Assembly (NCBI GenBank): GCA_036265915.1
Contig: DATAOC010000020.1
Span: 5,080 to 69,079, forward strand
Direction: 5' to 3'
DNA: 64,000 bases
Source: Candidatus Methylomirabilota bacterium
GTDB lineage: Bacteria; Methylomirabilota; Methylomirabilia; Rokubacteriales; CSP1-6
Part shown: piece after piece, positions 3,022-35,670 of the stretch
Numbering within the stretch: position 1 is the stretch's first letter
How the letters are laid out: every line of letters starts with the position of its first letter
Made by a program: the position numbers and the translations under genes
Notes under the pieces: generated by a model
What the model saw: the letters and a program-made list of their open reading frames with translations, nothing else
What the model was told of the DNA's origin: nothing
The model's database searches: none

Positions 3022-4581
3022 ATGCGTAGGGCGATCGCCGTCGTCCTGATCGGCGCCTGTCTGTCGCCGTACGCGGCCGCTGCTCAGCCACTGTCCACCC
3101 AGCCGTCGAATTCCGTCTCGGCACCCGCGGCACCGCGGCCGCCCGGCAGTTTTGCCCCTCTCACGCCGAGCCGCTCTGACACAGGCACGCTGTTCGGCGT
3201 GCAGAACAGGAACATCGCGGGCCCGGATTATCGTCTCGGGCCGGGCGACGTCCTGGACGTTCAGATCGTAGGCCGCCTCGACGTGAATCGCCAGCAGGTC
3301 GTCGTGGATTCCGAGGGCAACGTGGCGCTGCCGCCGCTCGGCACGCTGAGCGTGGGCGGCCGGACGCTGCTCGACGCCACACGCGCCATCAGCGCCCGCG
3401 CCCGCAACGTCTTTCGCTTCGCGGACGTCAGCATCGCGGTGCTCGCGCCGCGCGCCTTCGAGATCATCGTGTCCGGCGAGGTCGAGCGGCCCGGCACGCT
3501 GCAGGCACTCGCGACGCAGCGACTGCACGAGGTCATCCTGACGACCGGAGGCATCACGCCGCGGGGCAGCGTCCGGCACGTCCAGGTGACGCATGGCGGG
3601 ACGACCAGCGAGGTCGATCTGCTCCTGTTCGAGCTGAAGGGCGACGTCGCGCAGAACCCCTTCGTCCAGGAAGGCATGCGCATCCACGTTCCGCCACGGG
3701 GGCCGGCGGTGACGCTGCAAGGCGCCGGTGTACGCCGGCCCGGGGAGTACGAGCTGTCGAGCGACGGGTCGCTTCGCGACATCCTGGCGCTCACCGGCGG
3801 CCTCGGCCCCAATGGCGCGCTCGCCGACGCGCGGCTCACGCGCGTTGGTCCCGACGGCCGCAAGGAGACGAGCGCGGTCGACCTGCGCACCGCGCAGCTC
3901 GGACTGCAGGGCGGTGACGTGCTGTACGTGCCGCCGCTCGCCGTGATCCAGGACGTGGTCGAGGTGCGCGGCGCCTTCAACGGCACCGCCGACAGCGGCA
4001 AGGCGACCACGGCCGGCAAGCCGACGATCGTGCAGCGGCTCGAGCTCGCCCGGGGCGACCGCGTGCGCGACATCGTCGTGAAGGCGGGTGGGGTGGCCGC
4101 CTTCGGCGAGCTGCGGCTGGCCTACATCGACCGTGCGGACACCGGTCCGGCGCAACGCATCCCGGTGGACCTGCATCGCCTCATGGTCGACAAGGACGAG
4201 GCGCAGAACATCGTCGTGCAGAACGGTGACGTGCTGGTGGTGCCGGTGGTGGAAGACAAGGTCTACGTCGTCGGCGAAGTGCGCAATCCGGGGCCCCAGG
4301 ATTTCCGCCCCGAGCTGACCCCGCGGGAGTACCTCGCCGCCGCCGGCGGCCTCGGGAACCGGGCGAAGGTGGCGGCCGCCACCGTGACGTTCCGCAACGG
4401 TCGCACGTATGCGATGGCGGAGGCGCCGCCGCTGGAGGCGGGCGCGGTCGTCACCGTGCCGGAGGTCGCCGTGAAGTGGTGGCAGGACTACATCACCATC
4501 GCCAGCTTCGTCGCGAGTCTGGTCACGGCCTACACGGGCATCTTCGTCCTCTTCAACGGACCGATCTCGAACAACAACTGA
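3022..4581 (+). CDS. polysaccharide export protein (Wza/Poly_export N-terminus plus repeated SLBB-like domains)
   Basis: ATG at 3022 gives the signal-peptide-like 'MRRAIAVVLIGACLSPYAAAAQP'. 'YRLGPGDVLDVQI' is the typical Poly_export motif. Several 'G.V..PG.Y.l' soluble-ligand-binding beta-grasp-like repeats follow, with a C-terminal hydrophobic helix. Confidence 0.85.
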   Translation: MRRAIAVVLIGACLSPYAAAAQPLSTQPSNSVSAPAAPRPPGSFAPLTPSRSDTGTLFGVQNRNIAGPDYRLGPGDVLDVQIVGRLDVNRQQVVVDSEGNVALPPLGTLSVGGRTLLDATRAISARARNVFRFADVSIAVLAPRAFEIIVSGEVERPGTLQALATQRLHEVILTTGGITPRGSVRHVQVTHGGTTSEVDLLLFELKGDVAQNPFVQEGMRIHVPPRGPAVTLQGAGVRRPGEYELSSDGSLRDILALTGGLGPNGALADARLTRVGPDGRKETSAVDLRTAQLGLQGGDVLYVPPLAVIQDVVEVRGAFNGTADSGKATTAGKPTIVQRLELARGDRVRDIVVKAGGVAAFGELRLAYIDRADTGPAQRIPVDLHRLMVDKDEAQNIVVQNGDVLVVPVVEDKVYVVGEVRNPGPQDFRPELTPREYLAAAGGLGNRAKVAAATVTFRNGRTYAMAEAPPLEAGAVVTVPEVAVKWWQDYITIASFVASLVTAYTGIFVLFNGPISNNN

Positions 4582-4582
4582 C

Positions 4583-5389
4583 ATGTACGAAGCGTACTGG
4601 CAGCTGAGCGAGCCACCGTTCGACAACTCGCCGAACCCGAAGTTCTTCTACCTGTCGCCCGAGCACGAGGAGGCGCTGGTCCGTCTCGTCTACACCGTCC
4701 GCCACCGCAAGGGCTGCGGGATGCTCACCGGCGAGTACGGCTGTGGCAAGACCACGCTGTCGCGCGCGCTCATCCAGCGGCTGGAAGCGGAGCGGTACGA
4801 GATCGGCCTCCTGACGAATCCGCGCTGGGATGCCACCGACTTTCTCCGCGAGGCGCTCTACCAGCTCGGCGTGGAGACGACGGAGAAGCGCAAGCCCGAG
4901 CTGCTGCACCAGCTCAACGACGTGTTCTTCCGCAACTATCGCGACGGTCGCGACACCGTCATCATCGTGGACGAGGCGCAGCTGCTGGAGGACGACGGCC
5001 TCTTCGAGGAGCTCCGGCTCCTCATGAACTTCCAGACCGACGACCGCTTCCTGGTCACCGTGCTGCTGATCGGCTCCCCGGAGCTGCGCGACAAGGTCCG
5101 CAAGCTCAAGCACCTGGACCAGCGCATCACCATCCGCTATCACCTCAACACGCTCGACGACGCGCACACGGCGGCCTACATCGCCCACCGGCTGAAGATG
5201 GCCGGACGCACCACGCCGATCTTCACCGAGGACGCGGTGAAGCTGATCTTCGACTTCACCCGCGGCACGCCGCGGGAGATCAACAACCTCTGCGACGTGG
5301 CCCTCCTCGTCGGCTACACCAAGCGCGCGAACGAGGTGGGCGAGCGGATCATCGCGGAGGTCATCAAGGACATGGTCGGCGTGTCCTGA
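4583..5389 (+). CDS. ExeA/GspA-like AAA ATPase (secretion ATPase of the type found in PEP-CTERM/exosortase EPS loci)
   Basis: It has the P-loop 'GEYGCGKTT' and the 'IIVDEAQLL' (DEAQ) box. The N-terminal 'FY.S..H.EAL..L' is typical of ExeA/GspA-like proteins. At 268 aa it has no peptidoglycan-binding C-terminal domain. Confidence 0.8.
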   Translation: MYEAYWQLSEPPFDNSPNPKFFYLSPEHEEALVRLVYTVRHRKGCGMLTGEYGCGKTTLSRALIQRLEAERYEIGLLTNPRWDATDFLREALYQLGVETTEKRKPELLHQLNDVFFRNYRDGRDTVIIVDEAQLLEDDGLFEELRLLMNFQTDDRFLVTVLLIGSPELRDKVRKLKHLDQRITIRYHLNTLDDAHTAAYIAHRLKMAGRTTPIFTEDAVKLIFDFTRGTPREINNLCDVALLVGYTKRANEVGERIIAEVIKDMVGVS

Positions 5390-6483
5390 TGGTACGGATG
5401 AGCGACCTCGTCCGCGGGATCGTGCGCCCGTCGCCCGCGTCCGCCGCGCCCGCCACCGAAGCCCCCCCCGAGCCGAAGGCGGAGGAACAACCGGCCGTCG
5501 TCGCCACCAGCCGGGTCAGCATCGCCAGCAGCGAGCCCGCGCAGCCGGTGGTCCGGCTCGAGGCCGTCATGGCGCCGCGACGTCCCGCCGAGTCGACCGA
5601 GCCGCTCGAGCCGTTGTTCACGGACCTGCAAAGGGTGCTGATCGAGGCGCGGGAGCGCGTGGACCGTCCCGGATTTCCGTGGGCGAAGCTCGAGGCCGTC
5701 GTCGAGCGCGTCATCACGGCCGTGCTCGCGTCGCCGGATCTCGTCTGGGTGGCGAGTGCGGCGAGCGCGGCCGCGGGCGCCGATTACGTCGTGCTCCACC
5801 AGGCGCGCGCGTGCGTGCTGGCGCTTCGCCTCGGCGTCGACCTCGGCTACGAGCGTCCGCGCCTGTTGCCGCTCGGTCTCGCCGCCGCGCTCTTCGACGT
5901 GGGGCTGTGGCAGGCCCCGGCCACGCTGCTGGAGCGACTCGACACGCTGTCCGGCGCCGACCTGTCGGCGTATCACGCACACCCGCGCGCATCGGCGGAG
6001 ATCGTGCAGCGCTGGTCGCCGTCCGACTCGCGCATCGTCGACGCCATCGCCGACCACCACGAGCGTGAGCTCGGCCAGGGCTTCCCGCGCGGGCTGCAGG
6101 GCGGCGCCATCGCGGTCGACGCGAAGATCATCGGCCTCGTCGACACCTATGCGGCGCTCACGGTGCCGCCGGCGCCGCGCCCCCGGCTCCGCCCGCACGA
6201 GGCCATCCGCGACATCGTGAAGACCCGCAACGACCAGTTCCCCTCGCCGCTGATCAAGGCGCTGCTGTCGGAGATCTCGGTGTTCCCGCCGGGAACCATC
6301 GTGCGGCTGAACACGGAGGAAGTCGGCCGCGTCATCGCGGTGAACCGGAACCATCCGCTGCGACCGCAGGTGGAGATCGTCGCCGACGGCAAGGGCCAGC
6401 GCCTCGCGGCGCCCAAGGTCATCGATCTCTCCGAGTCGCCCTTCCTCTACATCACGGGTCCGGTCGGCGAGAGCTCGCGGTGA
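5389..6483 (+). CDS. HD-GYP-related domain protein with degenerate catalytic motifs
   Basis: The region 'ADHHERELGQGFPRGL...IIGLVDTYAALT' (about nt 6055-6130) follows the HD-GYP signature HHExxDGxGYP. Here D is L and GYP is GFP. The upstream 'HD(I/V)GK' position reads 'FDVGLW'. The ATG overlaps the preceding stop (TGATG). Confidence 0.65.
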   Translation: MVRMSDLVRGIVRPSPASAAPATEAPPEPKAEEQPAVVATSRVSIASSEPAQPVVRLEAVMAPRRPAESTEPLEPLFTDLQRVLIEARERVDRPGFPWAKLEAVVERVITAVLASPDLVWVASAASAAAGADYVVLHQARACVLALRLGVDLGYERPRLLPLGLAAALFDVGLWQAPATLLERLDTLSGADLSAYHAHPRASAEIVQRWSPSDSRIVDAIADHHERELGQGFPRGLQGGAIAVDAKIIGLVDTYAALTVPPAPRPRLRPHEAIRDIVKTRNDQFPSPLIKALLSEISVFPPGTIVRLNTEEVGRVIAVNRNHPLRPQVEIVADGKGQRLAAPKVIDLSESPFLYITGPVGESSR

Positions 6484-6492
6484 GGGCCTAGC

Positions 6493-9400
6493 GTGGCGCA
6501 GTACGAGATGAACCTGCGCGACTACTGGCTGATCGTCCGCCGGCGGCGGATGTGGATCATCGGCACGACCGTCGTCACCATGCTCGTCGCCCTCTGGCTC
6601 GCCCGCCAGAAGGTCCCGGTGTACCAGGCGACGGCGACCGTGAAGTTCGAGCAGGCCACCAGCCTGTCGGGTCTGCTGGTGGAAGTGCTGTCCTACTCCA
6701 GCTCCGACAGCATCGAGACGCAGGCCACGCTCATCAAGAGCTACCCCGTGCTCGAGGAGGTCGCTCGCCGGCTGGGGCGCCTGCCGCCGGCCACGGGCGA
6801 GGTGGCGGTGCGCGAGTCCCGCTCCTACCAGGCCGTCCTCGACGCGATCGGCAGCAAGCTCAAGACGAGCCGCCTGCCCAACACGAGCATCCTGGAAATC
6901 ACCGCGACCTCGACCAATTCGAAGGAAGCCCGCGACCTCGCCAACACGGTGGCCGAGGTCTATCGCGACTACAACAAGCAGAACCGCAACGCCCGCATGA
7001 CGGAGGCGCGCAAATTCATCGAGGCCCAGCTGCGCGAGGTGGACGGCCGGGTCAAGCGCGCGGAGGAGGAGGTGTGGGCCTTCCGCGACGCCAACCGCGT
7101 CATCTCCCCCGGTGCGGAGTCGACGGTGCTGCTCTCGCTCTTCACGCAGGTTCGCGGCGACATGGAGAAGACACGGCAGCAGCGGACCGAGCTCGAGGAG
7201 CTGCAGGCGCGGCTGGCCCGCACCGATCCCGCCAGCATGACCGAGCGTGTCTATGTCGAGACGACGAATCCGGCGCTGCTGCGGATGCAGACCGCGCAGA
7301 CCGAGCTGACCATGGAGCGCACGCAGCTGGCGCTCGAGGTGACCGACAAGCACCCGCGGCTGCGCGCGATCGATGATCGGCTGCGCGAGGTGCGGTTCGA
7401 GATGCGGCGCGAGATCGGCGCGCAGGTCGCCACCCTGAAGAATCGCGAGGAGATCCTCGGCCGCCAGATGGCCGAGCTGATGCAGAAGAACCGCGAAGTC
7501 CCGGCCATCGAGCTGTCGCTGCAGCGCCTGCAGCGCGACGCCAAGGTCAACGACGATCTGCTGACGCTGCTCAAGACCAAGCACCAGGAGGCGCTGATCA
7601 AGGAGTCCGAGGGCGTCGAGGAAGTGGCCCTCGTCCGCCCCGCCACCGAGCCCACCTCGCCCGTGGGCGGCGACACCCTGAACACCATGCTCGTCGGCGC
7701 GCTGCTCGGGCTGATGCTCGGGCTCGTGCTGGCCTTCGTGCAGGAGACGCTCGACACGTCGATCGGCACCATCGAGGACGTCGAGTCGTACCTCGACGTC
7801 AAGGTGCTCGGCATCGTGCCTCACATCGATCCGCGGGGGACGGTGGAGCGTCTGCTCGAGCGGCGGCCGGCGCTGGCCCAGATGGACCCCGAGGCGCTCC
7901 AGAGTCACGCGCTGCTCATCACGCATTTCGATCCGAAGTCCCCGGTGGCCGAGGCGTACCGCACGCTGCGCACCAACATCCAGTTCCAGCGGATGGAGCG
8001 CGGCGGCAAGGTGCTGGTGGTGACGAGCCCCACGCTGCAGGAGGGCAAGACCACCACCATCGTGAACCTCGCCCTCACGATGGCCCAGAGCGGCCAGAAG
8101 ACGCTGCTCGTCGGCGCCAACATGCGGCGCCCGTCGATTCACCGCTTCTTCGGGATCCCGCGCGAGCCCGGCCTCTCCGACATCCTCGTCGGCAACGCGC
8201 GGTGGCAGGACTGCGTGCGCGGCGTCGCCGACATCCTGATGGGCCGCTTCGAGATGGAAGACATCATGGCCTCGCCCGGTCTCGACAACCTCCACATCAT
8301 CGAGGCGGGCCCGATTCCCGCGAATCCCTCCGAGCTCCTGTCGACGGCCGCCATGCGCGACTTCCTGCACGCCGTCAGCGCCGAGTACGACATCGTCCTC
8401 ATCGACACGCCGCCCATCCTGCCGGTCACCGATTCCGCCATCGTCGCCGGCCAGGTCGACGGCGTGCTGCTCGTGTACCAGGCGGGCAAGGTGGGCCGGC
8501 TCGTGCTCAAGCGCGCGAAGGCGCATCTCGAGAGCGCACGCGCCAAGGTCTGGGGCATCGTGCTCAACGACCTCCAGACGGAGATCTCGGGCTACACGTA
8601 CACGCACTACTACACGCACTACTACGGCGAAGAGACCGATCCGGACTCGACGAGCACGGGTGTCGTCGGGCGCGCGCTTGATTTCGCGCGCGGCAAGCTG
8701 GGGCTCGGCGCGCGGCGCCCGACCACGACCACGGTGCCCGCCGACACCGGGACGGCAGCGCCGGTGGAGACGGGGGCGGGCACGCCGAGTCGCTTCAATC
8801 GCACGACGCTTCTCGTCGGCGTCGCCGTCGCGGCGACGCTCGGCGTCGCGGCGACGGTGGCGCTCTGGCGCGCCGGCGCTTCGCGCGAGGCGGATCCCCG
8901 CGCGCAGCTTCGTCAGCGGCTCGAGCCGCCCGCACGCTCCGGTGCGCCGGCGCCGAAGTCGCCGATGAAGCCCGCCACGCCGCCGTCTGCGCCGGCGCCA
9001 GCAGCGCCGGCCCCAGCAGCGCCACCGGCCTCGTCGGCACCGACGACGTCCTCGACGATGCGGCCGCCGGTGCTGCCGCAGGCGTCGGTGCTCGCGCTGC
9101 CGCCGGCCGTGGCGAGCACGCCGGCTCCGCGGCTCGCGCCGGCGCTCACGGCTCCGCCCACGACGACCGTCGCGCCGATATCGCGGGCGGAGCGCGCCGC
9201 CGCTCCGTCTTCCGCCATCCCGCCGGCCGTCGCGCCGTCACCGATCACGCCGCCGGCCGCCGTCCCGCTGGCCGCCGCCGCACCGGTCGACGTGCCGCCG
9301 GCGCCCACGCCGTCGCCCGTCCGAATCGGCACGGCGATCACGCAGCCGTCGCCGCCAGCGCCGTCGGTGACGATCGTGGCGCCGCCGGACACGCCGCCAG

Positions 9401-9951
9401 CGACGCCGTCGACGCTGGCCGCAAAGACCGGAGCCGAGACGAGCACAGCGACGACGCGGCACGTTAAGCCCGAGGCGACGCCGGTGGCGAGGGTGCCGGC
9501 GCGCTTCGCGCTGCTCTTCGGACCGTTCGCGTCCGCCGCGGACGCCGAGCGCCTCGAGCGCACGCTCATGCGGGCCGGACACGACAGCGTCCGCACGCGA
9601 GCGGACGGCGGACCGACCCGCTACGCCGTCCTCATCGAGCGGGTGGCCAGCGCGGCCGAGGCGCGCACGATCGGCGCCGTCCTCCGCGAGCAGGGTCTGG
9701 AGACCGTCGTGTCTACGAGCGAGCCGGTCGTCATCCGTGTCGGGGAGCCGCGGGTGCTGCGCGGCGCGGTGGAGCTGGCCGCGCGGGTTCGCAAGGCGGG
9801 CTACCAGGTCCGGGTGGTCGCCCAGCCCGGCGGCGGCGCTGCGTACACGATCCGGCACGGCAGCTTCGCGACGCGTGACGAGGCCGAGGGACGGAGTCGC
9901 GAGCTTGCACGGCTCAGCGTGCCGGTGGCGCAGGTGGTCCAGGTCCGGTAG
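6493..9951 (+). CDS. polysaccharide co-polymerase (Wzz/GumC-like) fused to a BY-type tyrosine autokinase, with a C-terminal TM segment, Pro/Ala-rich region and two SPOR-like domains
   Basis: TM1 is 'MWIIGTTVVTMLVALWLA', followed by a long coiled-coil periplasmic region and TM2 'LVGALLGLMLGLVLAFV'. Kinase motifs are Walker A 'SPTLQEGKTTT', A' 'VLIDTPPILPVTD' and B 'DGVLLVYQAG', with Tyr cluster 'YTYTHYYTHYYGEE'. Then comes TM3 'LLVGVAVAATLGVAATVALW' (about 8804-8870) and roughly 170 aa rich in P/A/S/T. Two SPOR-like units follow: 'RFALLFGPFASAADAERLERTLMRAGHDSVR...YAVLIERVASAAEARTIGAVL' and 'IRVGEPRVLRGAVELAARVRKAGYQVRVV...YTIRHGSFATRDEAEGRSREL'. Confidence 0.85.
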   Translation: MAQYEMNLRDYWLIVRRRRMWIIGTTVVTMLVALWLARQKVPVYQATATVKFEQATSLSGLLVEVLSYSSSDSIETQATLIKSYPVLEEVARRLGRLPPATGEVAVRESRSYQAVLDAIGSKLKTSRLPNTSILEITATSTNSKEARDLANTVAEVYRDYNKQNRNARMTEARKFIEAQLREVDGRVKRAEEEVWAFRDANRVISPGAESTVLLSLFTQVRGDMEKTRQQRTELEELQARLARTDPASMTERVYVETTNPALLRMQTAQTELTMERTQLALEVTDKHPRLRAIDDRLREVRFEMRREIGAQVATLKNREEILGRQMAELMQKNREVPAIELSLQRLQRDAKVNDDLLTLLKTKHQEALIKESEGVEEVALVRPATEPTSPVGGDTLNTMLVGALLGLMLGLVLAFVQETLDTSIGTIEDVESYLDVKVLGIVPHIDPRGTVERLLERRPALAQMDPEALQSHALLITHFDPKSPVAEAYRTLRTNIQFQRMERGGKVLVVTSPTLQEGKTTTIVNLALTMAQSGQKTLLVGANMRRPSIHRFFGIPREPGLSDILVGNARWQDCVRGVADILMGRFEMEDIMASPGLDNLHIIEAGPIPANPSELLSTAAMRDFLHAVSAEYDIVLIDTPPILPVTDSAIVAGQVDGVLLVYQAGKVGRLVLKRAKAHLESARAKVWGIVLNDLQTEISGYTYTHYYTHYYGEETDPDSTSTGVVGRALDFARGKLGLGARRPTTTTVPADTGTAAPVETGAGTPSRFNRTTLLVGVAVAATLGVAATVALWRAGASREADPRAQLRQRLEPPARSGAPAPKSPMKPATPPSAPAPAAPAPAAPPASSAPTTSSTMRPPVLPQASVLALPPAVASTPAPRLAPALTAPPTTTVAPISRAERAAAPSSAIPPAVAPSPITPPAAVPLAAAAPVDVPPAPTPSPVRIGTAITQPSPPAPSVTIVAPPDTPPATPSTLAAKTGAETSTATTRHVKPEATPVARVPARFALLFGPFASAADAERLERTLMRAGHDSVRTRADGGPTRYAVLIERVASAAEARTIGAVLREQGLETVVSTSEPVVIRVGEPRVLRGAVELAARVRKAGYQVRVVAQPGGGAAYTIRHGSFATRDEAEGRSRELARLSVPVAQVVQVR
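8602..8625 (+). repeat. perfect 12-bp tandem duplication (ACGCACTACTAC x2) inside the tyrosine-cluster coding region
   Basis: Read directly: 8602-8613 and 8614-8625 are identical. They encode THYY-THYY within 'YTYTHYYTHYYGEE'. Confidence 0.9.
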
Positions 9952-9956
9952 CGCCG

Positions 9957-18270: not shown

Positions 18271-18274
18271 CCGC

Positions 18275-21590: not shown

Positions 21591-21591
21591 C

Positions 21592-27505: not shown

Positions 27506-28659
27506 GCGTGCGGGTGCTGCATGTCATCACGCGGCTGAGCCTCGGCGGCTCCGCGGAGAACACCGTGGGCGCCATGGTCGGGCTCGCCGCCGCCGGCTAC
27601 GGTGGGCCGCTGGCCGTCGGGCTCGCGGAATCCGACGCCGCCAGCGTGCGCTCGGCGCGCGAGCGCGGCGTCGCGATCGTGGACGTTCCGGGGCTCGGGC
27701 GCGAGGTCGGCGCACGGGACCTCGTCGCGCTGGCGCAGCTGCTCGCGGTCATTCGCCGCGAGCGGCCGGCGATCGTCCACACGCACACATCGAAGGCGGG
27801 GTTCGTCGGTCGGCTGGCCGCGCGGCTGGCCCGCGTGCCGGCGGTGATCCACCAGCCGCACGGCCACATCTTCTATGGCTACTGGGGCCCGCGCCGCACC
27901 GCGATGTACGTCCACCTGGAGCGGCTCGCCGCGCGCTGGACCGATCGGATCGTGACCCTCACCGAGCGCGGCACCGAGGAGCACCTGGCGCAGCGGATCG
28001 GACGACGGGCGCAGTACCGCACGGTGCCGAGCGGTGTGCCGACCGCGGAGCTGCGCGCGCAGGCGCCGGGGCGCTCGGCGGCCCGCGCCGCGCTCGGCGT
28101 GCCGGCCGGCGCGTTCGTGATCGGCGGCCTCGGGCGGTTCGTTCGCGTGAAGGGCTTCGATCTCCTCGTCGCCGCGCTGCCCGCGGTGGCGGCGGCGGTA
28201 CCGTCGGTGCAGCTCCTGCTGATCGGCGACGGCCCCGAGCGACTGGCGCTCGAGGCACAGGCGAGCGCGCTCGGCGTCCGCGCGCGCGTGCGGATCACCG
28301 GCGCCACGCGCGACATCGCGCGCGCCCTGGCCGCCTGCGATGCGCTGGCGGCGCCGTCGCGAAACGAGGGGATGGGACGCGCGCTGGTGGAGGCGATGGC
28401 CCTCGGCCTGCCGGTCGTCGGCGCCGACGTGGGCGGCATTCCGGCGGTGATCGTGGACGGCGAATGCGGGCGCATCGTGCGGGCGGGCGACGCCGATGCG
28501 CTCGCGGAGGCGCTGGTGGACCTGGGGCTGGATGTGGCGCTGCGCGAGAAGCTGGCCGCGGCGGCCATCACGCGGGCCGAGGCCTTCTCCACGCAGGTCG
28601 CCGACGTGGCGATGCGCGCGATCTACGCCGAGCTCGCGCGCGAGAAGCAGCTCGGCTGA
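27502..28659 (+). CDS. glycosyltransferase family 4 (GT-B)
   Basis: It has 'VLHVITRLSLGGSAENT' and 'LAAPSRNEGMGRALVEAMALGLPVVGADVGGIP'. The start is a GTGA overlap. Confidence 0.85.
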   Translation: MSVRVLHVITRLSLGGSAENTVGAMVGLAAAGYGGPLAVGLAESDAASVRSARERGVAIVDVPGLGREVGARDLVALAQLLAVIRRERPAIVHTHTSKAGFVGRLAARLARVPAVIHQPHGHIFYGYWGPRRTAMYVHLERLAARWTDRIVTLTERGTEEHLAQRIGRRAQYRTVPSGVPTAELRAQAPGRSAARAALGVPAGAFVIGGLGRFVRVKGFDLLVAALPAVAAAVPSVQLLLIGDGPERLALEAQASALGVRARVRITGATRDIARALAACDALAAPSRNEGMGRALVEAMALGLPVVGADVGGIPAVIVDGECGRIVRAGDADALAEALVDLGLDVALREKLAAAAITRAEAFSTQVADVAMRAIYAELAREKQLG

Positions 28660-30125
28660 TGCGCGGGCGGCTCGGCGCCGCACTCGTCGCCGCCCTCGCG
28701 CTGCTGACGCCGCCCGCGGATGCCGACGAGCTGCTGCCGGTGGCGGCCGTCGTGCACCTGCACTCGGATCTGTCGAGCGGCGAGTACGCGCTCGACGAGC
28801 TCGCCGGGATGGCGGCGCGTCAGGAGATCGGGGCGCTGCTGCTCGCCGAGAACTATCTCAATCGCATCGAATACGGCCTGCCCCCGTTTCGCGCGCTGAC
28901 GCGGGTGCGCTACGAGGCGCCGTCGGTGTACGGACGACTCGACGCGTACCGCGAGCGCGTGACCCGCGCGCGCGCCGCGCACCCCGACCTCGTCATCGTG
29001 CCCGGCGTGGAAGTGATGCCGCACTACCGCTGGAGCGGCTCGCCGCTCGCGCTCGAGCTCGCCGTCGCCAACACGCAAAAGAACCTCCTCGTGTTCGGTC
29101 TCGACGACCCGCACGCGCTGGCCGCGATCCCGGTGGTCGGCAACAGCGCGGCGGGGACGTACTCCACCCACTCGCTCGTCGAGGCGGCGCCGGTCGTGCT
29201 GCTCGCGCCCGGCCTGCTGCTGCTCCTCCTGAAGCGCCCGCGGCGTCGCCGCGTCGGCGCGGCCGTCATCCTCGTCCGCCAGCGTCAGTGGCTGCCCGGC
29301 TCGATCCTGTGCGCCGTGGCGCTGGCCACCGTGATCCGCGGCTGGCCGTTCACCCAGACACCGTACTCGCCGTACGCCGACTACGGCGCGGCGCCGTACC
29401 AGGACGTCATCGACTACGTCGAGCAGCGCGGCGGCGCCGCCGTCTGGTCCTTTCCGGAGGCGCGCGACAGCGGCAGCGACGCCGCCGGCCCGGTCCGCGT
29501 GACCTGGTCGACGGAGCCGTACCCCGACGACCTGCTGCGGACGTTCCGCTACACCGCGTTCGGCGCGCTCTACGAGGACACGACGCAGGTGGAACGGCCG
29601 GGCGGCGGCTGGGATCGGCTGCTGGCCCAGTACGCGGCGGGCGAGCGCAGCCGGCCGGCGTGGGGGCTCGGAGAGTCGGGCTATCACGACTCCAGCGCGG
29701 GCAAGCGGCTGGGACGCGTGCAGACGGTCTTCCTCGTCCGCGAGCGCTCCGAGGCGGGCGTGCTCGAGGCGCTGCGCGGTGGCCGGCTGTACGCGCGGCT
29801 CCGCACACCGCAGAGCGCGCTGGCGCTGACGGAGTTCGCCGCGGCCACCGATGCCGCACGCGCCGGCGCCGGCGACACGCTGCGTCCGGCGCCGGGTGCC
29901 GTGGTGACGCTCACGATCGGCGTCGACGTCGTCGGCACGCCGCCCGCCGATCTCCGCGTCGTGCTCGTCAAGGACGGGATCATCGCCGAGGCGTGGACCG
30001 GCACGACGCCGTTTCGCGCCGCGCACCGCGAGACCTGGGACGGGCGCCCCGCAGTCTTCCGGCTGGAAGCGCGTGGCGGCGGCGGGCGCCTGCTCTCGAG
30101 CGCCATCTTCCTGAGGCCATCGTGA
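28659..30125 (+). CDS. exported PHP-domain-like metal-dependent phosphoesterase-like protein with an internal TM hairpin
   Basis: The signal peptide is 'MRGRLGAALVAALALLTPPADA'. PHP-like blocks are 'VVHLHSDLSSGE', 'VIVPGVEV' and, late in the protein, 'GLGESGYHDSSAG'. Two hydrophobic segments, 'APVVLLAPGLLLLLL' and 'LPGSILCAVALATVI', separate the halves. The family call is tentative. Confidence 0.45.
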   Translation: MRGRLGAALVAALALLTPPADADELLPVAAVVHLHSDLSSGEYALDELAGMAARQEIGALLLAENYLNRIEYGLPPFRALTRVRYEAPSVYGRLDAYRERVTRARAAHPDLVIVPGVEVMPHYRWSGSPLALELAVANTQKNLLVFGLDDPHALAAIPVVGNSAAGTYSTHSLVEAAPVVLLAPGLLLLLLKRPRRRRVGAAVILVRQRQWLPGSILCAVALATVIRGWPFTQTPYSPYADYGAAPYQDVIDYVEQRGGAAVWSFPEARDSGSDAAGPVRVTWSTEPYPDDLLRTFRYTAFGALYEDTTQVERPGGGWDRLLAQYAAGERSRPAWGLGESGYHDSSAGKRLGRVQTVFLVRERSEAGVLEALRGGRLYARLRTPQSALALTEFAAATDAARAGAGDTLRPAPGAVVTLTIGVDVVGTPPADLRVVLVKDGIIAEAWTGTTPFRAAHRETWDGRPAVFRLEARGGGGRLLSSAIFLRPS

Positions 30126-30826
30126 AGGTCGCCATCCATCAGCCGCAGTACCTGCCGTGGCTCGGTTACCTCGCGAAGTGGGCGGCCGCCGACCTGTTCG
30201 TCTTCCTCGACACCGTGCAGTACGAGAAGAATGGCTGGCAGAACCGCAACCGCATCCGCGGCGCCGACGGGACCGCCCACTGGCTGACCGTTCCCGTCCA
30301 CGCGCATCTCGGGACGTCGATCGCGGAGGTCGTGGTCGACGGCACCCAGCCGTGGCGGGCCCGCCACGTGCGCGCGATCGAGCACGCCTACGCGCGGGCA
30401 CCGCACTTGCCGGTGCACGCGCCCGCGCTCCACGACCTGCTCGGTCGCGACTGGCCGCGTCTGGCGCCGCTGGCGGCAGCGAGCGCCGAGTGGCTCGCGC
30501 GCGCCGTCGGCGTCGCGGCGCCGACGCGCCTGGCCTCGACGCTCGCGGTCGACGACAGCGACGCGACGGCGCGGCTGGTGGCCATCTGTCGCACCGTGGG
30601 CGCCGACACCTACCTCGCCGGCGGCCACGGGGCGCGCTACCTCGACGGCGAGCGCTTCCGCCGGGCCGGGATCACCGTGCTCTACCAGCGCTACGAGCAC
30701 CCCGTATATGCGCAGCAACACGGCGAATTCATGCCGTTCCTGTCGGGCGTCGACCTATTATTGACTCACGGCGATGAGAGCCTGCCCATCCTCCGGCGCG
30801 GGGACGCCTGGTCACGGGAGCCGTAG
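30122..30826 (+). CDS. WbqC-like family protein
   Basis: The N-terminus 'KVAIHQPQYLPWLGYLAKWAAADLFVFLDTVQYEKNGWQNRNRI' is the characteristic WbqC-family opening. The start is a GTGA overlap. Confidence 0.7.
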   Translation: MKVAIHQPQYLPWLGYLAKWAAADLFVFLDTVQYEKNGWQNRNRIRGADGTAHWLTVPVHAHLGTSIAEVVVDGTQPWRARHVRAIEHAYARAPHLPVHAPALHDLLGRDWPRLAPLAAASAEWLARAVGVAAPTRLASTLAVDDSDATARLVAICRTVGADTYLAGGHGARYLDGERFRRAGITVLYQRYEHPVYAQQHGEFMPFLSGVDLLLTHGDESLPILRRGDAWSREP

Positions 30827-31441
30827 ATGAACGTCCTCGCCATCGGCGCGCACCCGGACGACATCGAATACGGCTGCGGCGGCATGCTCACCAAGTACGC
30901 GGAGAAAGGGCACACCGTGTACCTCTTCATCGCCTCCGACGGCAGCCTCGGCGGCGAGCCGGCCGTGCGCCGGCGTGAGCAGATGGACTCCGCGATGATC
31001 ATGGGCGCCCGCGAGGTGTTCTGGGGCGAATACCCGGACACGGAGATTCCGCTGAACCGCGAGCTCATCGTGCGGCTCGAGCAGGTGATCCGCCGCGTGG
31101 AGCCACGCATGATCTTCGTGAATTTTCCGGAGGACACGCACCAGGACCATCGCAACCTCGCCCAGGGGACGCTGTCGGCCACCCGGTACGTCCCCAACTT
31201 TCTCTTCTACGAGGGCCCCACCACGGTCAACTTCACGCCGAACTGCTTCACCGACGTCGAGAAGGTGCTCGACAAGAAGCTCGCGTGCCTGGAGGCGCAC
31301 CGCTCGCAGGTGGCGAAGACGAACATCGAGGACCAGACGATCCTGGAGCTGGCGCTGTCGTGCGCCAACTTCCGGGGCATCCAGGCCCGGGTGAAATACG
31401 CCGAAGCGTTCCAGTCGATCCGTCTGCTGCTGAACATTTGA
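30827..31441 (+). CDS. PIG-L/LmbE-family N-acetylglucosaminyl deacetylase
   Basis: It has the 'VLAIGAHPDDIEYGCGG' motif and 'HQDH'. ATG immediately follows the upstream TAG. Confidence 0.85.
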   Translation: MNVLAIGAHPDDIEYGCGGMLTKYAEKGHTVYLFIASDGSLGGEPAVRRREQMDSAMIMGAREVFWGEYPDTEIPLNRELIVRLEQVIRRVEPRMIFVNFPEDTHQDHRNLAQGTLSATRYVPNFLFYEGPTTVNFTPNCFTDVEKVLDKKLACLEAHRSQVAKTNIEDQTILELALSCANFRGIQARVKYAEAFQSIRLLLNI

Positions 31442-32475
31442 TTCCGCACTCGCGACCGTCCATCAGCGATGCCGACATCGCGCGCGTCTCCGCCGTCCTG
31501 CGCGCGGGTCAGCTGGCGCAGGGCCCCGAGGTGGCCGCGCTCGAGCTCGAGCTGGCGGCGCGCCTGAGCGTGGCGTCCGCGGCCGTGGTGAGCTCGGGAA
31601 CGGCGGCGCTGGAGCTGGCGCTGCGCGCGCTCGACGTCGGCCCCGGCGACGAGGTGCTCATCCCGACCTACGTCTGCGACGCGCTCTATCACGCCGTCAC
31701 CCGCTGCGGCGCCGCGCCGGTGCTCGTCGATGCCGACCCCGCCACGCTGACGCTCTCGGCCAAGGACGCCGAGGCGCGGCGCACGCGGCGCACGCGGGCG
31801 GCCATCGTGCCGCACGCCTTCGGTCTCGCGGTCGACCTCGAGCCGTTCGTCGCGCTCGGCGTGCCGGTCATCGAGGACTGTGCGCAGGCGCTCGGCGCCG
31901 AGGTGGGCGGGCGGGCCGCGGGAGCGGCGGGAACGCTCGCAGTGTGCTCGTTCTACGCCACGAAGATGATCGCGGCCGGCGAGGGCGGCGCCGTGCTCGG
32001 GCCGGCGGCACTGGTGGCGCGTGTGCGCGAGGCGCGCGACTACGACGAGCGAGAGCGGCTCACGCCGCACACGAACGCCAAGCTCACCGACCTGCAGGCC
32101 GCGCTCGCGCGCAGCCAGCTGGCGCGCCTCGAGCAGTTCGTGGCCCGGCGGCGCGCCATCGCCGCGCGCTATCGCGCGCGATTGGCCGGCGCCGACTGTG
32201 CGGTGCCCCCGGACCCGGCGCGCCGGCACGTGTACCATCGGTTCGTCGTGAGCGTCGAGCGCGATCCCGCCGAGCTGCAGTCGACGCTCGCGGCCAGGGG
32301 CGTGGCCGTCCGCCGGCCCGTGTTCCGGCCCGCCCACCGCGCGCTCGGCCTGCACGGCTATCCCGAGGCGGAGAGGCTGTGGGCCACGGCGCTGTCGCTG
32401 CCCTGCTATCCGGCGCTCACCGACGGCGAGGTCGACGTCGTCGCCTCGGCGTTGCGGGAGGCGCTCGGCGCGTGA
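31438..32475 (+). CDS. DegT/DnrJ/EryC1/StrS-family sugar aminotransferase
   Basis: It has 'IPHSRPSISDADI', 'LIPTYVCDALYHAV' and 'CSFYATKMIAAGEGGAV' (the PLP-lysine context). The only start consistent with full length is TTG 31438, overlapping the upstream stop (TTGA). Confidence 0.8.
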   Translation: MIPHSRPSISDADIARVSAVLRAGQLAQGPEVAALELELAARLSVASAAVVSSGTAALELALRALDVGPGDEVLIPTYVCDALYHAVTRCGAAPVLVDADPATLTLSAKDAEARRTRRTRAAIVPHAFGLAVDLEPFVALGVPVIEDCAQALGAEVGGRAAGAAGTLAVCSFYATKMIAAGEGGAVLGPAALVARVREARDYDERERLTPHTNAKLTDLQAALARSQLARLEQFVARRRAIAARYRARLAGADCAVPPDPARRHVYHRFVVSVERDPAELQSTLAARGVAVRRPVFRPAHRALGLHGYPEAERLWATALSLPCYPALTDGEVDVVASALREALGA

Positions 32476-33587
32476 CGAAGAGCCTGGCGCGACTGGCGCT
32501 TCTGGCGGTGGTGATGCTGCCGCCGGTGCGCCGCGCTTTCGGCGCCGCCGGGCTCAGCTGGCTCTATCTGATGGCGCTGGCCTTTGCCGCGTCGCTGGCC
32601 GCCGTGCCCCTCGTGCGGGCGCTGGCGACCTGGTGGAGCGTGCTCGACGTGCCGGCCGCGCGCAAGGTGCACGCGGTGCCCACGCCGCTCCTGGGTGGCG
32701 CTGCCGTGTACGCGGCGTTCGCGGCGACCGTGCTCTTCAACTTCTCCTTCTCGCGGCAGCTGAAAGGCGTGGCCGTCGGGGCCACCATCGTGGTCGTGGT
32801 CGGGGTGCTCGACGACATCTTCGACCTCTCCCCGCGGCTGAAGCTGCTCGGCCAGCTCGCGGCCGGTGTGGTCGCGCTCGCGTACGGCGTCACGCTGAAC
32901 GTCGTGCCGCACCAGCTTGCGGGGGCGGTCGCCATCAACGCGCTGCTGACCCTGCTGTGGCTGCTCACGGTCACCAACGCGCTGCAGTTCCTCGACGGCA
33001 TGGACGGCCTCGCGGCCGGCGTCGGCGCCATCGCCGCCCTCTTCTTCAGCATGGCCGCGCTGCAGACCAACCAGCGCTACCTGATGTTCCTCGCGGCGCC
33101 GCTGGTCGGCGCGTGCCTCGGGTTCCTGCCGTACAACTTCCGGCCCAGTCGGCGCGCCAGCATCTTTCTCGGCGACGCCGGCGCAAGCTTCATCGGCTTC
33201 ACGCTGGCCGGGTTGGCCGTCATGGGAGAATGGGCGCAGGACGATCCGCTCGTCGCCCTGCTGACGCCGATGCTCATTCTCTCCGTGCCCCTGTTCGACA
33301 TCGCGTATGTTGGCATCGTGCGCATCGTCACGGGCAAGGTGCACTCGGTGTCCGAGTGGCTCGCGTACACCGGCAAGGATCACATCCACCACCGGTTCGA
33401 GGCGCTGGGCATGAACCGGCCGGAGAGCGTGCTGCTCATCCTTGCCATCGCGGCCACGCTCGGTCTCTCGGCCCTGCTCCTGAAGTTCGCGAACCGGGCG
33501 GAAGCCGTGCTGGTGCTCGTCCAGGCCGGCTGCATTCTGGCCATCATCGCCGTGCTGGAGAGCGTGGCGCGCGGGCGCGGACGATGA
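32472..33587 (+). CDS. MraY/WecA-family polyprenyl-phosphate N-acetylhexosamine-1-phosphate transferase (initiating transferase)
   Basis: It has 'LDVPAARKVHAVPTPLLGG', 'VGVLDDIFDLSPRLKL', 'NALQFLDGMDGLAAG' and 'IFLGDAGASFIGF'. The start is a GTGA overlap. Confidence 0.85.
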   Translation: MTKSLARLALLAVVMLPPVRRAFGAAGLSWLYLMALAFAASLAAVPLVRALATWWSVLDVPAARKVHAVPTPLLGGAAVYAAFAATVLFNFSFSRQLKGVAVGATIVVVVGVLDDIFDLSPRLKLLGQLAAGVVALAYGVTLNVVPHQLAGAVAINALLTLLWLLTVTNALQFLDGMDGLAAGVGAIAALFFSMAALQTNQRYLMFLAAPLVGACLGFLPYNFRPSRRASIFLGDAGASFIGFTLAGLAVMGEWAQDDPLVALLTPMLILSVPLFDIAYVGIVRIVTGKVHSVSEWLAYTGKDHIHHRFEALGMNRPESVLLILAIAATLGLSALLLKFANRAEAVLVLVQAGCILAIIAVLESVARGRGR

Positions 33588-34015
33588 AGGCAGCCGTCCG
33601 GAGGCTGCGCGAGCGGTTCCTGGCGCTGCTGCACCTCGACGATCCACCGTGGCGGGTGGCGCTGGCCCTCGCCGTCGGCGTGTTCATCAGCTTCACGCCC
33701 TTCCTCGGCTTCCAGACGCTCCTGGCCCTTCTCGTGGGCACCGTGTTCCGACTGAATGCCGCCGTCGTGGTGACCGGGACGTGGCTCAACCTGCCGTGGT
33801 TCATGCCGTTCGTCTATGCCGGCTCGCTGAAGGTGGGCGCGCTGCTCCTGCCGGACCTCAAGGACGTCGGTGACTGGTCGCTCGCGCTGCTCATCGGCAC
33901 CACGCTGCTCGGATCCGCAGCGGCGGTGGTGACGTATGTCGTCGCCCTCGGCGTCATGCGCCGACGCGGAAAGCACCGCTCCCGGGAGCCGCGCTCCAAG
34001 CGCGAGGCGGCGTGA
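33584..34015 (+). CDS. DUF2062-like small membrane protein
   Basis: 'DDPPWRVALALAVGVFISFTPFLGFQTLLALLVGTVFRLN' matches the DUF2062 opening pattern as I recall it. The start is an ATGA overlap. Confidence 0.6.
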   Translation: MKAAVRRLRERFLALLHLDDPPWRVALALAVGVFISFTPFLGFQTLLALLVGTVFRLNAAVVVTGTWLNLPWFMPFVYAGSLKVGALLLPDLKDVGDWSLALLIGTTLLGSAAAVVTYVVALGVMRRRGKHRSREPRSKREAA

Positions 34016-34785
34016 GCCCCGCCGTCGGTCGGGCGCTGACGCTGGCGGTGACGCTGGCGCTGCTCATCGTCGGCTATCGGGTCGTGCTGGGTCTCATCGA
34101 CCGTCTGGTGGCCGCGGTCGCCGAGCGGCATCCCGACGCGATCCGCTCCCGCACGCTCGGCTCGCTGCTCACGAATCTGCTGCGCTGGGTGCTCGCGTTC
34201 GTCGTGCTGGTGCTCCTGCTGCGCGAGCTCGGCATCGACGTCGGCGCGCTCGTCGTGTCGGCCGGCGTCATCGGCATCGTCGTCGGCCTCGGGGCGCAGG
34301 CGCTGATCCGCGACCTGATCACCGGGATCTTCCTGCTCTTCGAGGGCTTGCTCGCCATCGGCGACGTCGTCAAGGTCGGCGATCACACGGGCGTGGTGGA
34401 GGCCATCGGGCTGCGGGTGACGCGGTTGCGCCTGCCCGACGGCGCGCTGCGCGTGGTACCGAACGGGCTGCTGACGGACTTCTCCAACTACAGCTCGGGG
34501 TGGGCGCGCGCCATCGTCGACGTCGCCGTGCCCCGCACGGTGGACGTCGAGCGGGCGCTGGCGGCGCTGCGGGCGATCGGCGAGGCGTGGGCGCGCGACA
34601 GCTCGCGCGCGCTGGACCCGCCGATGGCGCAGGGTATTATGAGGTTCAGCGGCGGCGGTGACGCGGTGCTTCGGTTGACCGTCAAGGTCGAGGCCGCCCG
34701 TCGCGAAGAAACGGAGCTCGAGCTCCGACGGCGCATCCGAGACGCGTTCGACCGCGAGCAGTGGCCCGTGGCCGGCGCATCCTGA
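34012..34785 (+). CDS. small-conductance mechanosensitive channel (MscS family)
   Basis: The pore-helix/beta-domain junction is 'GVIGIVVGLGAQALIRDLITGIFLLFEGLLAIGDVVKVGDHTGVVEAIGLRVTRLRLPDG'. The start is a GTGA overlap. Confidence 0.8.
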   Translation: MSPAVGRALTLAVTLALLIVGYRVVLGLIDRLVAAVAERHPDAIRSRTLGSLLTNLLRWVLAFVVLVLLLRELGIDVGALVVSAGVIGIVVGLGAQALIRDLITGIFLLFEGLLAIGDVVKVGDHTGVVEAIGLRVTRLRLPDGALRVVPNGLLTDFSNYSSGWARAIVDVAVPRTVDVERALAALRAIGEAWARDSSRALDPPMAQGIMRFSGGGDAVLRLTVKVEAARREETELELRRRIRDAFDREQWPVAGAS

Positions 34786-34803
34786 AAACGAGGAGTCCCC
34801 GCC

Positions 34804-35670
34804 ATGCGCGTGCGGAAGGGCGTGTTCCCCGCGGCCGGGCTCGGCACGCGGTTCCTGCCGGCCACCAAGGCGCAGCCGAAGGAGATGCTGCCGCTCGTCG
34901 ACAAGCCGATGATCCAGTACGTCGTCGAGGAGGCGGTCGCCTCCGGCCTGGCCGAGATCATCATCGTCACCGGGCGCGGCAAGCGCGCGATCGAGGATCA
35001 CTTCGACGCCGCCTTCGAGCTCGAGTACTACCTGAACGACCGCGGCAAGGTCGACGAGCTCGCGCAGATCAAGACGATCTCCGAGCTGGCTTCGGTCTCG
35101 TACGTGCGGCAGAAGGAGCCGCTCGGCCTCGGCCACGCCATCCTGTGCGCGCGCACGCTGGTCGGTGACGAGCCGTTCGGCGTGTTTCTCGGCGACGACA
35201 TCATCGGCGGCGCCCGGGTCCCGTGCATGAAGCAGCTCCTCGACGTCTTCGCGCAGTACGACGGGCCGGTGATCGCCGTGGAGCGAGTGCCGCGCGAGCG
35301 CATCCACCAGTACGGCGTCATCGCCGGCCGCAACGTCGCGGGTAACGTGTGGGAGATCAGCGACCTCGTCGAGAAGCCGCGTCCGGAAGACGCGCCGTCC
35401 GATTTGGCCATCATCGGCCGCTACGTGCTGACCCCCGATCTGTTCGGCATTCTCGCCGATACCGCGGCCGACAAGCGCGGCGAGATCCAGCTCACGGACG
35501 GGCTGCGGACGCTGCGCAAGCGGCGGCCGATGTACGCGGTGGAGTTCCAGGGCAAGCGCTACGACACCGGCGACAAGCTCGGGTTCCTCAAGGCCACGGT
35601 GGAGTTCGCGCTCGAGCGGCCGGATCTCGCAGACGCGTTTCGCGCGTATCTGAGGAGCCTGCAACTCTAG
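34804..35670 (+). CDS. galU: UTP--glucose-1-phosphate uridylyltransferase
   Basis: It has 'KGVFPAAGLGTRFLPATKAQPKEMLPLVDKPMIQY' and 'VEKP'. The SD GAGGAG lies upstream of the ATG. Confidence 0.92.
   Translation: MRVRKGVFPAAGLGTRFLPATKAQPKEMLPLVDKPMIQYVVEEAVASGLAEIIIVTGRGKRAIEDHFDAAFELEYYLNDRGKVDELAQIKTISELASVSYVRQKEPLGLGHAILCARTLVGDEPFGVFLGDDIIGGARVPCMKQLLDVFAQYDGPVIAVERVPRERIHQYGVIAGRNVAGNVWEISDLVEKPRPEDAPSDLAIIGRYVLTPDLFGILADTAADKRGEIQLTDGLRTLRKRRPMYAVEFQGKRYDTGDKLGFLKATVEFALERPDLADAFRAYLRSLQL

Follow-up and report, generated by a model that had tools for sequence, protein, structure and literature searches.

Introduction

Group-1 capsule and colanic-acid systems, for which E. coli K30 is the paradigm, are Wzx/Wzy-dependent and rely on Wza, Wzb and Wzc. 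ExeA/GspA of type II secretion (ExeAB of Aeromonas) and MshM of MSHA pili are homologous to the ATPase family TIGR03015. Polysaccharide machines also contain degenerate cyclic di-GMP (c-di-GMP)-domain proteins, such as PelD and the PilZ proteins Alg44 and BcsA, and degenerate HD-GYP proteins are represented by Pseudomonas aeruginosa PA2572. These systems, together with the XrtA (exosortase)/PEP-CTERM loci, were compared with an operon at positions 3022-35670 of a 64,000-nucleotide window (contig C20:5080-69079) from a metagenome-assembled genome (MAG) of a Rokuibacteriota/Methylomirabilota soil bacterium (4.56 Mb, 162 contigs, 87% complete, GC 70-75%). An initial annotation of the window had described a glycan-assembly locus with PEP-CTERM-locus hallmarks and no exosortase. 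We consider it likely that the operon is a self-contained, exosortase-independent system for the Wzx/Wzy-dependent assembly and export of a heteropolysaccharide, either an extracellular polysaccharide (EPS) or a capsule-like polymer.

The locus is an exosortase-independent Wza/Wzc/Wzx/Wzy EPS type with a conserved, uncharacterised accessory set. Two families of this set have no assigned reaction (WbqC and an exported PHP-like protein), and an ATPase and a pseudo-HD-GYP protein form a candidate signalling pair. As the comparisons show, the module comprises an ExeA-like ATPase, a degenerate HD-GYP protein, the exported PHP-like protein, WbqC, LmbE, DegT, WecA and a family 4 glycosyltransferase (GT4), without an exosortase. 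The operon belongs to this unnamed accessory-module type, which is widespread and found in several phyla, and is not categorically new. Rokubacteria are abundant, uncultured soil bacteria, and the conserved 28-gene locus with its variable, serotype-like middle is probably one of the chief factors that shape their cell surface and the matrix of soil aggregates or biofilms.

Export and assembly genes

Domains were assigned by Pfam and NCBIfam profile scans of all 28 proteins of the locus, all encoded on the + strand, and NCBIfam scores were read against the trusted cut-offs (given in parentheses). The Wza-like exporter, ExeA-like ATPase, polysaccharide co-polymerase/bacterial tyrosine kinase (PCP/BY-kinase), Wzy_C and Wzx proteins described initially were all recovered by these scans. 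The first gene (3022-4581) encodes a Wza-like outer-membrane polysaccharide export (OPX) lipoprotein with a Poly_export and three SLBB domains (PF02563, PF10531, PF22461; TIGR03028, 131.8 bits, cut-off 262.65). As before, the ATG at 3022 was taken as its start, since no other start yields a signal peptide with a lipobox-like cysteine (MRRAIAVVLIGAC).

The second gene (4583-5389) encodes a 268-residue ExeA/GspA-like AAA_22 ATPase (PF13401, 88 bits) with intact Walker A (GCGKTT) and Walker B (VDEAQ) motifs. It shares with ExeA and MshM the AAA_22 P-loop, the DEAQ Walker B motif and a gene position beside that of an outer-membrane channel. In contrast to ExeA/GspA, Pfam and hydrophobicity analyses of the window protein found the AAA_22 domain alone, with neither a transmembrane (TM) or hydrophobic segment nor a peptidoglycan-binding domain, and no secretin or ExeB/GspB partner was found within the window. 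Peptidoglycan binding is a feature of both systems, but in the window it resides in a SPOR domain on the Wzc-like protein.

The product of the third gene (5398-6483) is HD-GYP-like (HD_5; PF13487, 86.9 bits) and begins with a disordered stretch rich in Ala and Pro; among PDB entries, the c-di-GMP phosphodiesterase 4r8z matches it best. Each of the five Rokubacteria orthologues has F, L or I where the HD dyad should have its His, and GYP reads GFP; the intact HD dyad and HHE...GYP motif of HD-GYP phosphodiesterases are absent from the locus protein and from this five-orthologue set. The Desulfosarcina orthologue keeps HD and GYP, with VYE in place of HHE. These substitutions suggest that a sensor fits better than an enzyme, although of the dyad itself the Rokubacteria proteins have lost only the His, and some activity may remain. 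Like PelD, Alg44, BcsA and PA2572, the protein has a signalling domain of impaired catalysis and is encoded inside an EPS export operon; unlike the first three, the domain is HD-GYP-like and not GGDEF, EAL or PilZ, and the protein is a candidate receptor.

A PCP-2a/Wzc-type chain-length regulator fused to a BY-kinase follows (6493-9951), with Wzz, GNVR, AAA_31 and SPOR domains. It scored 186.8 bits against TIGR01007, exceeding the cut-off (108), and has the Walker motifs (P-loop) and a cluster of six tyrosines near residue 700 (GYTYTHYYTHYY, YTYTHYYTHYY). TM segments were found at residues 19-38, 394-421 and 771-793; the third is an extra one, and opens a C-terminal extension that continues with a Pro/Ala linker of about 200 residues and ends in one or more SPOR domains. 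The next gene (9957-11279) encodes a polytopic Wzy_C-family protein with about 10 hydrophobic segments (PF04932, 33.8 bits, cut-off 31.7), a probable Wzy polymerase, although a polymerase and a ligase cannot be separated in this family from the sequence alone. A Wzx/MOP-family flippase is encoded at 11975-13468 (PF13440, PF01943).

The locus resembles group-1 capsule systems in the Wza OPX lipoprotein, the Wzc PCP-2a protein with Walker motifs and C-terminal Tyr cluster, the Wzx and Wzy-like proteins, the polyprenyl-phosphate initiator and the glycosyltransferase (GT) block. It differs in that no Wzb is present, an ExeA-like ATPase and a degenerate HD-GYP gene lie between Wza and Wzc, Wzc has a third TM segment and a SPOR tail, the initiator is of the WecA and not the WbaP/WcaJ type, and a PHP-like protein is exported.

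An O-antigen/lipopolysaccharide locus, initiated by WecA and Wzx/Wzy-dependent, with Wzy_C as a WaaL-type ligase and a GT2/GT-C pair modifying the O-antigen, is an unlikely reading. It would account for the WecA-type initiator, Wzx, the Wzy_C protein (which is of the O-antigen ligase Pfam family) and the ArnC/ArnT-like pair, and relatives differ strongly in the central GT block, a hypervariability like that of serotype loci. Against this, a Wza OPX protein and a Wzc-type PCP-2a BY-kinase with Tyr cluster are hallmarks of capsule or EPS export and not of the ligation of O-antigen; the Wzy_C-family gene is the only one, and a ligase role would leave no polymerase; and no core-oligosaccharide genes lie nearby. 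Export of an EPS or capsule-like polymer is the reading that we prefer.

Relation to XrtA/PEP-CTERM loci

The reference set for XrtA/PEP-CTERM loci consisted of a published survey, the NCBIfam models TIGR03006/03007/03013/03015/03016/03018/03027/03088/03108 and the Methylobacillus eps cluster. In that survey only EpsH was specific to PEP-CTERM-positive species, the EPS families neighbouring EpsH had close homologues in PEP-CTERM-negative genomes, and more than two PEP-CTERM proteins per genome were taken as the criterion (Haft et al., 2006; PMC1569441).

The window locus is, like the XrtA EPS loci, a large co-directional EPS operon of a soil bacterium, with a homologous exporter, chain-length determinant/tyrosine kinase, ExeA-like P-loop ATPase, GT4 and AsnB. 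For five of its proteins (the exporter, the ATPase, the PCP/kinase, one GT4 and AsnB) the top NCBIfam models were those of the XrtA system, and every one of these matches fell under its trusted cut-off: 87.8 bits for the exporter with TIGR03027 (180), 247.6 for the ATPase with TIGR03015 (324.5), 203.7 for the GT4 with TIGR03088 (409) and 566.9 for AsnB with TIGR03108 (816.9), with 122.3 for TIGR03007 (278.85) and 129.7 for TIGR03018 (230.65) as the values of the locus. TIGR03097 matched no locus protein, Wzy_C included (E ≤ 1e-5). Thus none of the PEP-CTERM-locus models exceeded its cut-off, the outcome that the initial annotation had itself named as contrary to its assignment. The hallmarks that it had listed stand as homology and not as membership, and the scores argue that the likeness is of this kind.

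The window locus lacks the exosortase, EpsI, any PEP-CTERM gene, the TIGR03006 deacetylase, the TIGR03013 priming transferase, the TIGR03016 outer-membrane protein and a PrsK/PrsR-type regulator, in contrast to XrtA loci, and the families that are shared score under the cut-offs. Its initiator is of the WecA type, instead of a bacterial sugar transferase, and its PCP and kinase are fused and not split. Conversely, the HD-GYP-like, exported PHP-like, WbqC, LmbE and DegT genes are extra to the window locus. The hallmarks of PEP-CTERM loci are, minus the exosortase itself, not diagnostic, and an EPS system that is widespread and exosortase-independent can be misread, by annotation pipelines and readers alike, as one of the XrtA type.

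Profile and tail searches agreed with the initial annotation that no exosortase and no PEP-CTERM-tailed gene is present in the window. The whole genome was searched with PF09721 and TIGR04178, and exactly two exosortases were found, on contigs C118 and C150. The earlier suggestion that an exosortase lies elsewhere is thus literally correct, but the C118 enzyme belongs to a separate, self-sufficient XrtA-type locus. It scored 184 bits against TIGR02602 (cut-off 105) and 204.9 against the XrtA model (208), and its gene is at the contig start, together with those of a TIGR03088-like GT4, a flippase, GT2 enzymes and a GalE-like epimerase. Of the four TIGR03015-like ATPase paralogues in the genome, the window copy scores lowest and that on C26 highest (316 bits). 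Among the proteins encoded beside the C26 gene, a TIGR03006 deacetylase exceeds its cut-off (337 bits against 276), and a TIGR03027 exporter and a TIGR03007 chain-length determinant reach 154.6 and 266.6 bits. The others are a TIGR03018-like kinase, a TIGR03013/03025 priming transferase, a TIGR03016-like outer-membrane protein, a TIGR03087-like GT and a sigma-54 response regulator. Most XrtA-family proteins of the C26 and C118 segments outscore the window copies.

The canonical XrtA-type locus is split over two contig ends, C26:1-12400 (reverse) and C118:1-8569. In the congener G005 the orthologues of reverse-complemented C26 and C118 follow one another without interruption on one contig (C5:10-28.6 kb of that genome), and 12 kb separate the exosortase from the ATPase; spacings of 10-12 kb were also found in G002, G008 and G021. 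From this collinearity we conclude that the window genome has a complete XrtA-type locus elsewhere. The window operon is a paralogue of the genuine XrtA locus, and not part of it.

PEP-CTERM substrates were searched for in the 87%-complete genome with PF07589, which gave one match over the cut-off, and with a regular expression, which gave two credible tails (on C150 and C90); neither search found a PEP-CTERM-tailed protein on contig C20. The substrates detectable in the assembly number only two to three, few for an XrtA system. The second exosortase (C150:18045-19173) is shorter, with 136 bits against the XrtA model, and its gene is directly 3' of that for an 80-residue protein ending in a PEP-CTERM signal (VPEPSTLYALGSGVALLGGAGWYIRRRK). 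The C150 pair looks like a dedicated one-substrate sortase pair, distant from any glycan locus.

The two remaining TIGR03015-like ATPase paralogues are at C148:843-5831 and C114:48877-50556. One of them is flanked by an EpsF-like chain-length determinant on one side and a separate BY-kinase on the other, next to a UDP-sugar dehydrogenase; the other is a 559-residue form beside glutaminyl-tRNA synthetase, without EPS neighbours. A further module of Wza, HD-GYP-like and PCP/BY-kinase genes, with no ExeA-like ATPase, is on contig C5 of the window genome (C5:9222-13659), and its HD-GYP-like protein has lost most of the HD region.

Distribution among relatives, metagenomes and other phyla

The single-copy gene for a 488-residue protein (28659-30125) was used as the marker of the locus in 41 relatives, all represented by MAGs. 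G016, G019, G007 and G010 share the window locus in synteny, from the DegP neighbour as far as GalU. G016 is of another genus and 100% complete, and G019 and G007 are 98% and 97% complete; no exosortase was found in the genomes of G007 and G019 at E ≤ 1e-10. The conserved order at the 5' end is Wza-ATPase-HD-GYP-PCP-Wzy, followed by a variable middle of GT and methyltransferase (MT) genes, and that at the 3' end is AsnB-GT4-GT4-PHP-like-WbqC-LmbE-DegT-WecA-(DUF2062)-GalU.

The marker was found in 20 of the 41 relatives, half of them (10/20) without an exosortase, and six of these are at least 94% complete. Both marker and exosortase were present in 10 genomes, the marker alone in 10, the exosortase alone in six and neither in 15. 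In G018, which is 98% complete, the marker occurs without any TIGR03015-like ATPase (E ≤ 1e-20), so the cassette need not be accompanied by the ATPase.

No exosortase was found at the locus itself, whether in the four syntenic relatives, in 14 genome loci or in 80 metagenome loci. In the soil metagenome loci with enough flank the marker was followed by WbqC-LmbE-DegT-WecA in 33 of 33 and by GalU in 32 of 33, and AsnB lay upstream of the marker in 33 of 34. The metagenome scan returned only Rokubacteria-like loci (at least 52% identity) and added no phyla.

The cassette GT4-PHP-like-WbqC-LmbE-DegT-WecA extends to at least five further phyla and was found in Planctomycetia, Latescibacterota, Poribacteria, Desulfosarcina, Firestonebacteria (partial) and the unclassified MAG CSMAG_1299, with no exosortase near the cassette in any of these genomes. 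An ATPase of the window type accompanies it in three of them (Poribacteria, Desulfosarcina and CSMAG_1299), and the Desulfosarcina locus additionally has an HD-GYP-like gene and a PCP. The window ATPase is 44-49% identical to these three, as against 38-40% to the paralogues of its own genome. In a maximum-likelihood tree the window-type and cassette-linked ATPases were set apart from the XrtA-locus, C148 and C114 paralogues with support of 100/99; the tree holds only 12 sequences, some on long branches. The exosortase-independent derivative that had been offered as one of two explanations is supported by the synteny, the phyletic pattern, the metagenome loci and the cassettes of other phyla.

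These data bear on the proposal that the operon makes the glycan for the XrtA/PEP-CTERM system of the genome, separated physically from the exosortase yet functionally dependent on it. The top-model status of XrtA families for five proteins and the two exosortases and at least two PEP-CTERM proteins of the same genome speak for it. We regard it as quite improbable: the model matches are all under cut-off; the C118 exosortase has its own exporter, chain-length determinant, ATPase, kinase, deacetylase, priming transferase, GTs and flippase; the locus is kept in near-complete exosortase-free relatives, with no phyletic coupling in the counts given above; and the window ATPase is in a separate clade. 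An operon that works without an exosortase is preferred.

The central GT/methyltransferase block (11295-23222) varies among relatives, between two conserved ends of the locus. G007, G016 and G019 lack GT-C, one GT2, Wzx and the methyltransferase MT-a or have other genes in their place. By analogy, the variable middle resembles the serotype-determining regions of O-antigen and capsule loci.

Exported PHP-like protein

The 488-residue product of the marker gene matched no family in the Pfam or NCBIfam scans and no PDB sequence. It has a signal peptide, and its confident AlphaFold2 model (predicted local distance difference test score, pLDDT, 86.6) shows a PHP-like barrel with a hydrophobic hairpin inserted at residues 171-228, and a C-terminal Ig-like sandwich; the top Foldseek match was 3e38, a two-domain PHP-like phosphoesterase (E 8e-9). 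The family comprises 602 representatives (50% identity) at E ≤ 1e-30, and in its alignment the PHP metal-binding histidines are mostly not invariant. The protein was considered as the missing CpsB-type phosphatase of the BY-kinase, and rejected on account of these histidines and of the signal peptide, which makes it unlikely to reach a cytoplasmic kinase.

Glycosyltransferase, methyltransferase and tailoring genes

Downstream of the Wzy_C gene, 11295-11978 encodes a possible S-adenosylmethionine (SAM) methyltransferase (PF13489, 24.2 bits, under the Pfam cut-off of 27). The gene at 13465-14790 encodes a GT2 (PF00535, 91 bits) fused to a SAM methyltransferase (PF08241, 69 bits); the GT2 half resembles polyprenyl-phosphate sugar synthases, and its top NCBIfam models are AglJ, dolichyl-P hexose transferase, PpgS and ArnC. 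It is followed by a GT2 (14727-15698; PF00535, PF13641), a PMT_2/ArnT-like GT-C acting at the periplasmic face (15695-17203; PF13231, 44 bits; about nine hydrophobic segments), three GT4 enzymes (17203-18270, 18275-19417 and 19414-20601; PF00534, PF13692, PF13439), a weak GT2-like protein (20598-21590; PF00535, 26.5 bits, with no single stretch passing alone) and two SAM methyltransferases (21592-22371 and 22365-23222; PF08241, PF13649 and related families). Glycosylation of proteins or an S-layer by the GT-C and the AglJ-like GT2, with no free polysaccharide, is highly improbable: PMT_2 includes protein O-mannosyltransferases and the top model AglJ is an S-layer N-glycosyltransferase, but both matches are far under the cut-offs, the GT-C is an accessory part that G007, G019 and G010 do not have in their syntenic loci, and the Wza/Wzc/Wzx/Wzy set indicates a secreted polymer.

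Next come a GT4 at 23243-24361, the one with TIGR03088 as its top model, and an AsnB-type glutamine amidotransferase at 24361-26244 (TIGR01536, 479 bits, cut-off 267), in which the N-terminal MCG, with the Cys nucleophile, is intact. A second AsnB paralogue, on C13, scored higher with TIGR03108 (616 bits) but is outside any EPS locus. Two further GT4 genes were assigned by Pfam (26249-27505 and 27502-28659), and in the syntenic comparison the second always adjoins the PHP-like gene. The WbqC-family protein (30122-30826; PF08889, 217 bits) was modelled by AlphaFold2 with a pLDDT of 92.6; the Foldseek search of the PDB gave nothing significant (best E 7e-3 at a TM-score of 0.16), the PDB sequence search gave no match, and the literature search returned only a statement that the family is uncharacterised. 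An N-terminal motif, HQPxYLPWxGYF, is strongly conserved in the family.

An LmbE/PIG-L-type zinc de-N-acetylase with AHPDD and HxDH motifs (30827-31441; PF02585, 90 bits) is followed by a DegT/PseC/ArnB-type, pyridoxal phosphate-dependent sugar aminotransferase (31438-32475; PF01041, 254 bits; PseC- and ArnB-like NCBIfam matches under the cut-offs), a WecA/MraY-family initiating phosphoglycosyltransferase (32472-33587; PF00953, 115 bits; TIGR02380, 128 bits, cut-off 326) and a small DUF2062 membrane protein (33584-34015; PF09835, 93 bits). The final gene is that of GalU, the UTP-glucose-1-phosphate uridylyltransferase (34804-35670; TIGR01099, 365.3 bits, cut-off 326.8).

The initial assignments of AsnB, WbqC, LmbE/PIG-L, DegT and GalU hold in the profile scans. 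Among the 11 GTs counted initially, six GT4, one GT-C and the WecA/MraY initiator were retained, and the three GT2 enzymes became two firm ones and the weak protein at 20598-21590; the four methyltransferase domains became three firm ones and the sub-threshold match at 11295-11978. The list of remaining genes had omitted four, for the HD-GYP-like, 488-residue PHP-like, DUF2062 and MscS proteins.

Proposed assembly pathway

By homology the pathway is Wzx/Wzy-dependent, with initiation of the WecA type, a large set of GT4 and GT2 enzymes, methylation and export through Wzc and Wza. The following steps are drawn from knowledge of the families. GalU would supply UDP-glucose, and the WecA-type enzyme would prime undecaprenyl phosphate with N-acetylhexosamine-1-phosphate. 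The LmbE de-N-acetylase, the DegT aminotransferase and WbqC may modify an amino sugar that lies at, or close to, the primer at the reducing end. Up to nine cytoplasmic GT4 and GT2 enzymes could then extend the repeat unit, three or four methyltransferases would modify it and AsnB would possibly amidate it. The unit would be flipped by Wzx and polymerised by the Wzy_C protein, and the ArnC-like GT2 and ArnT-like GT-C may add a side sugar at the periplasmic face; this pair would be accessory, because the GT-C is absent in G007, G010 and G019. Export of the polymer would be by the Wzc-type BY-kinase and the Wza lipoprotein. The SPOR tail is predicted to tether the kinase/trans-envelope complex to peptidoglycan, in analogy to the peptidoglycan-binding domain of ExeA, and the ATPase and the catalytically impaired HD-GYP protein might, speculatively, form a nucleotide-signal-dependent checkpoint or an assembly factor on Wza/Wzc. 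The complex methylated heteropolysaccharide foreseen initially is a reasonable product; its amidation is uncertain, because the locus has no dehydrogenase that forms uronic acids.

Several points weigh against an exosortase-independent operon of this kind. No Wzb/CpsB-type phosphotyrosine phosphatase is present (no low-molecular-weight phosphotyrosine phosphatase match among the 28 locus proteins), and the locus contains neither a sugar 4,6-dehydratase/oxidoreductase as the source of a keto sugar for the DegT step nor a UDP-sugar dehydrogenase as the source of a uronic acid for the substrate of AsnB; a number of the pathway steps are for this reason only inferred. Wzy_C might also act as a WaaL-like ligase and not as a polymerase. 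Both systems coexist in the genome and there might be cross-talk, for example by attachment of PEP-CTERM proteins to this polymer. As all comparison genomes are MAGs, absence of exosortase from any single one is not proof.

A wider and more doubtful proposal, which we put forward tentatively, is that of a cross-phylum Wzx/Wzy class defined by a co-inherited set: the ATPase clade, the impaired HD-GYP protein, the membrane-tethered exported PHP-like protein, and the WbqC/LmbE/DegT/WecA/GT4 cassette, which would build an amino-sugar primer. In such a class the ATPase and the pseudo-HD-GYP protein may act as a second-messenger checkpoint, and the periplasmic PHP-like protein may process the undecaprenyl-diphosphate-linked polymer.

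Gene calling, extent of the locus and flanking genes

High GC gives many spurious open reading frames, and genes were therefore called by codon usage with a caller trained on the long open reading frames of the genome itself. The calls gave 28 consecutive + strand genes spanning 32.6 kb, of which the first begins with the ATG at 3022 and the last, that of GalU, ends at 35670, with junctions ranging from a 64-nt overlap to a 20-nt gap (23223-23242). The tight same-strand packing described initially is confirmed, with 28 genes in place of 29 and a largest gap of 20 nt in place of 18 nt.

Scans for sigma-54 and sigma-70 promoters 5' of 3022 and for terminators near 35670 gave nothing usable, and the limits of the transcript were therefore taken from gene spacing and synteny only. 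A sigma-54 site (TGGCAC-N5-TTGC-like, up to two mismatches) was not found in 2886-3022, promoter scans being weak evidence, and no PrsK/PrsR-type regulator gene is within the locus. The + strand run extends to 42438, but its 3' genes are unrelated (Pal/OmpA, amidohydrolase, metallo-β-lactamase-fold, enolase-superfamily and others). The 5' flank is also unrelated, with genes for GvpL/F, a cytidylate-kinase-like/BON protein and a divergent DegP-like protease.

An MscS-type mechanosensitive channel gene (34012-34785; PF00924, PF21088) sits between DUF2062 and GalU, with 4-nt overlaps. G007, G016 and G019 lack it at this site and 11 of 33 metagenome loci have it; it is a lineage-specific passenger. 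The GvpL/GvpF gas-vesicle homologue is at 8-625 of the window, and gas-vesicle genes may extend upstream on the contig.

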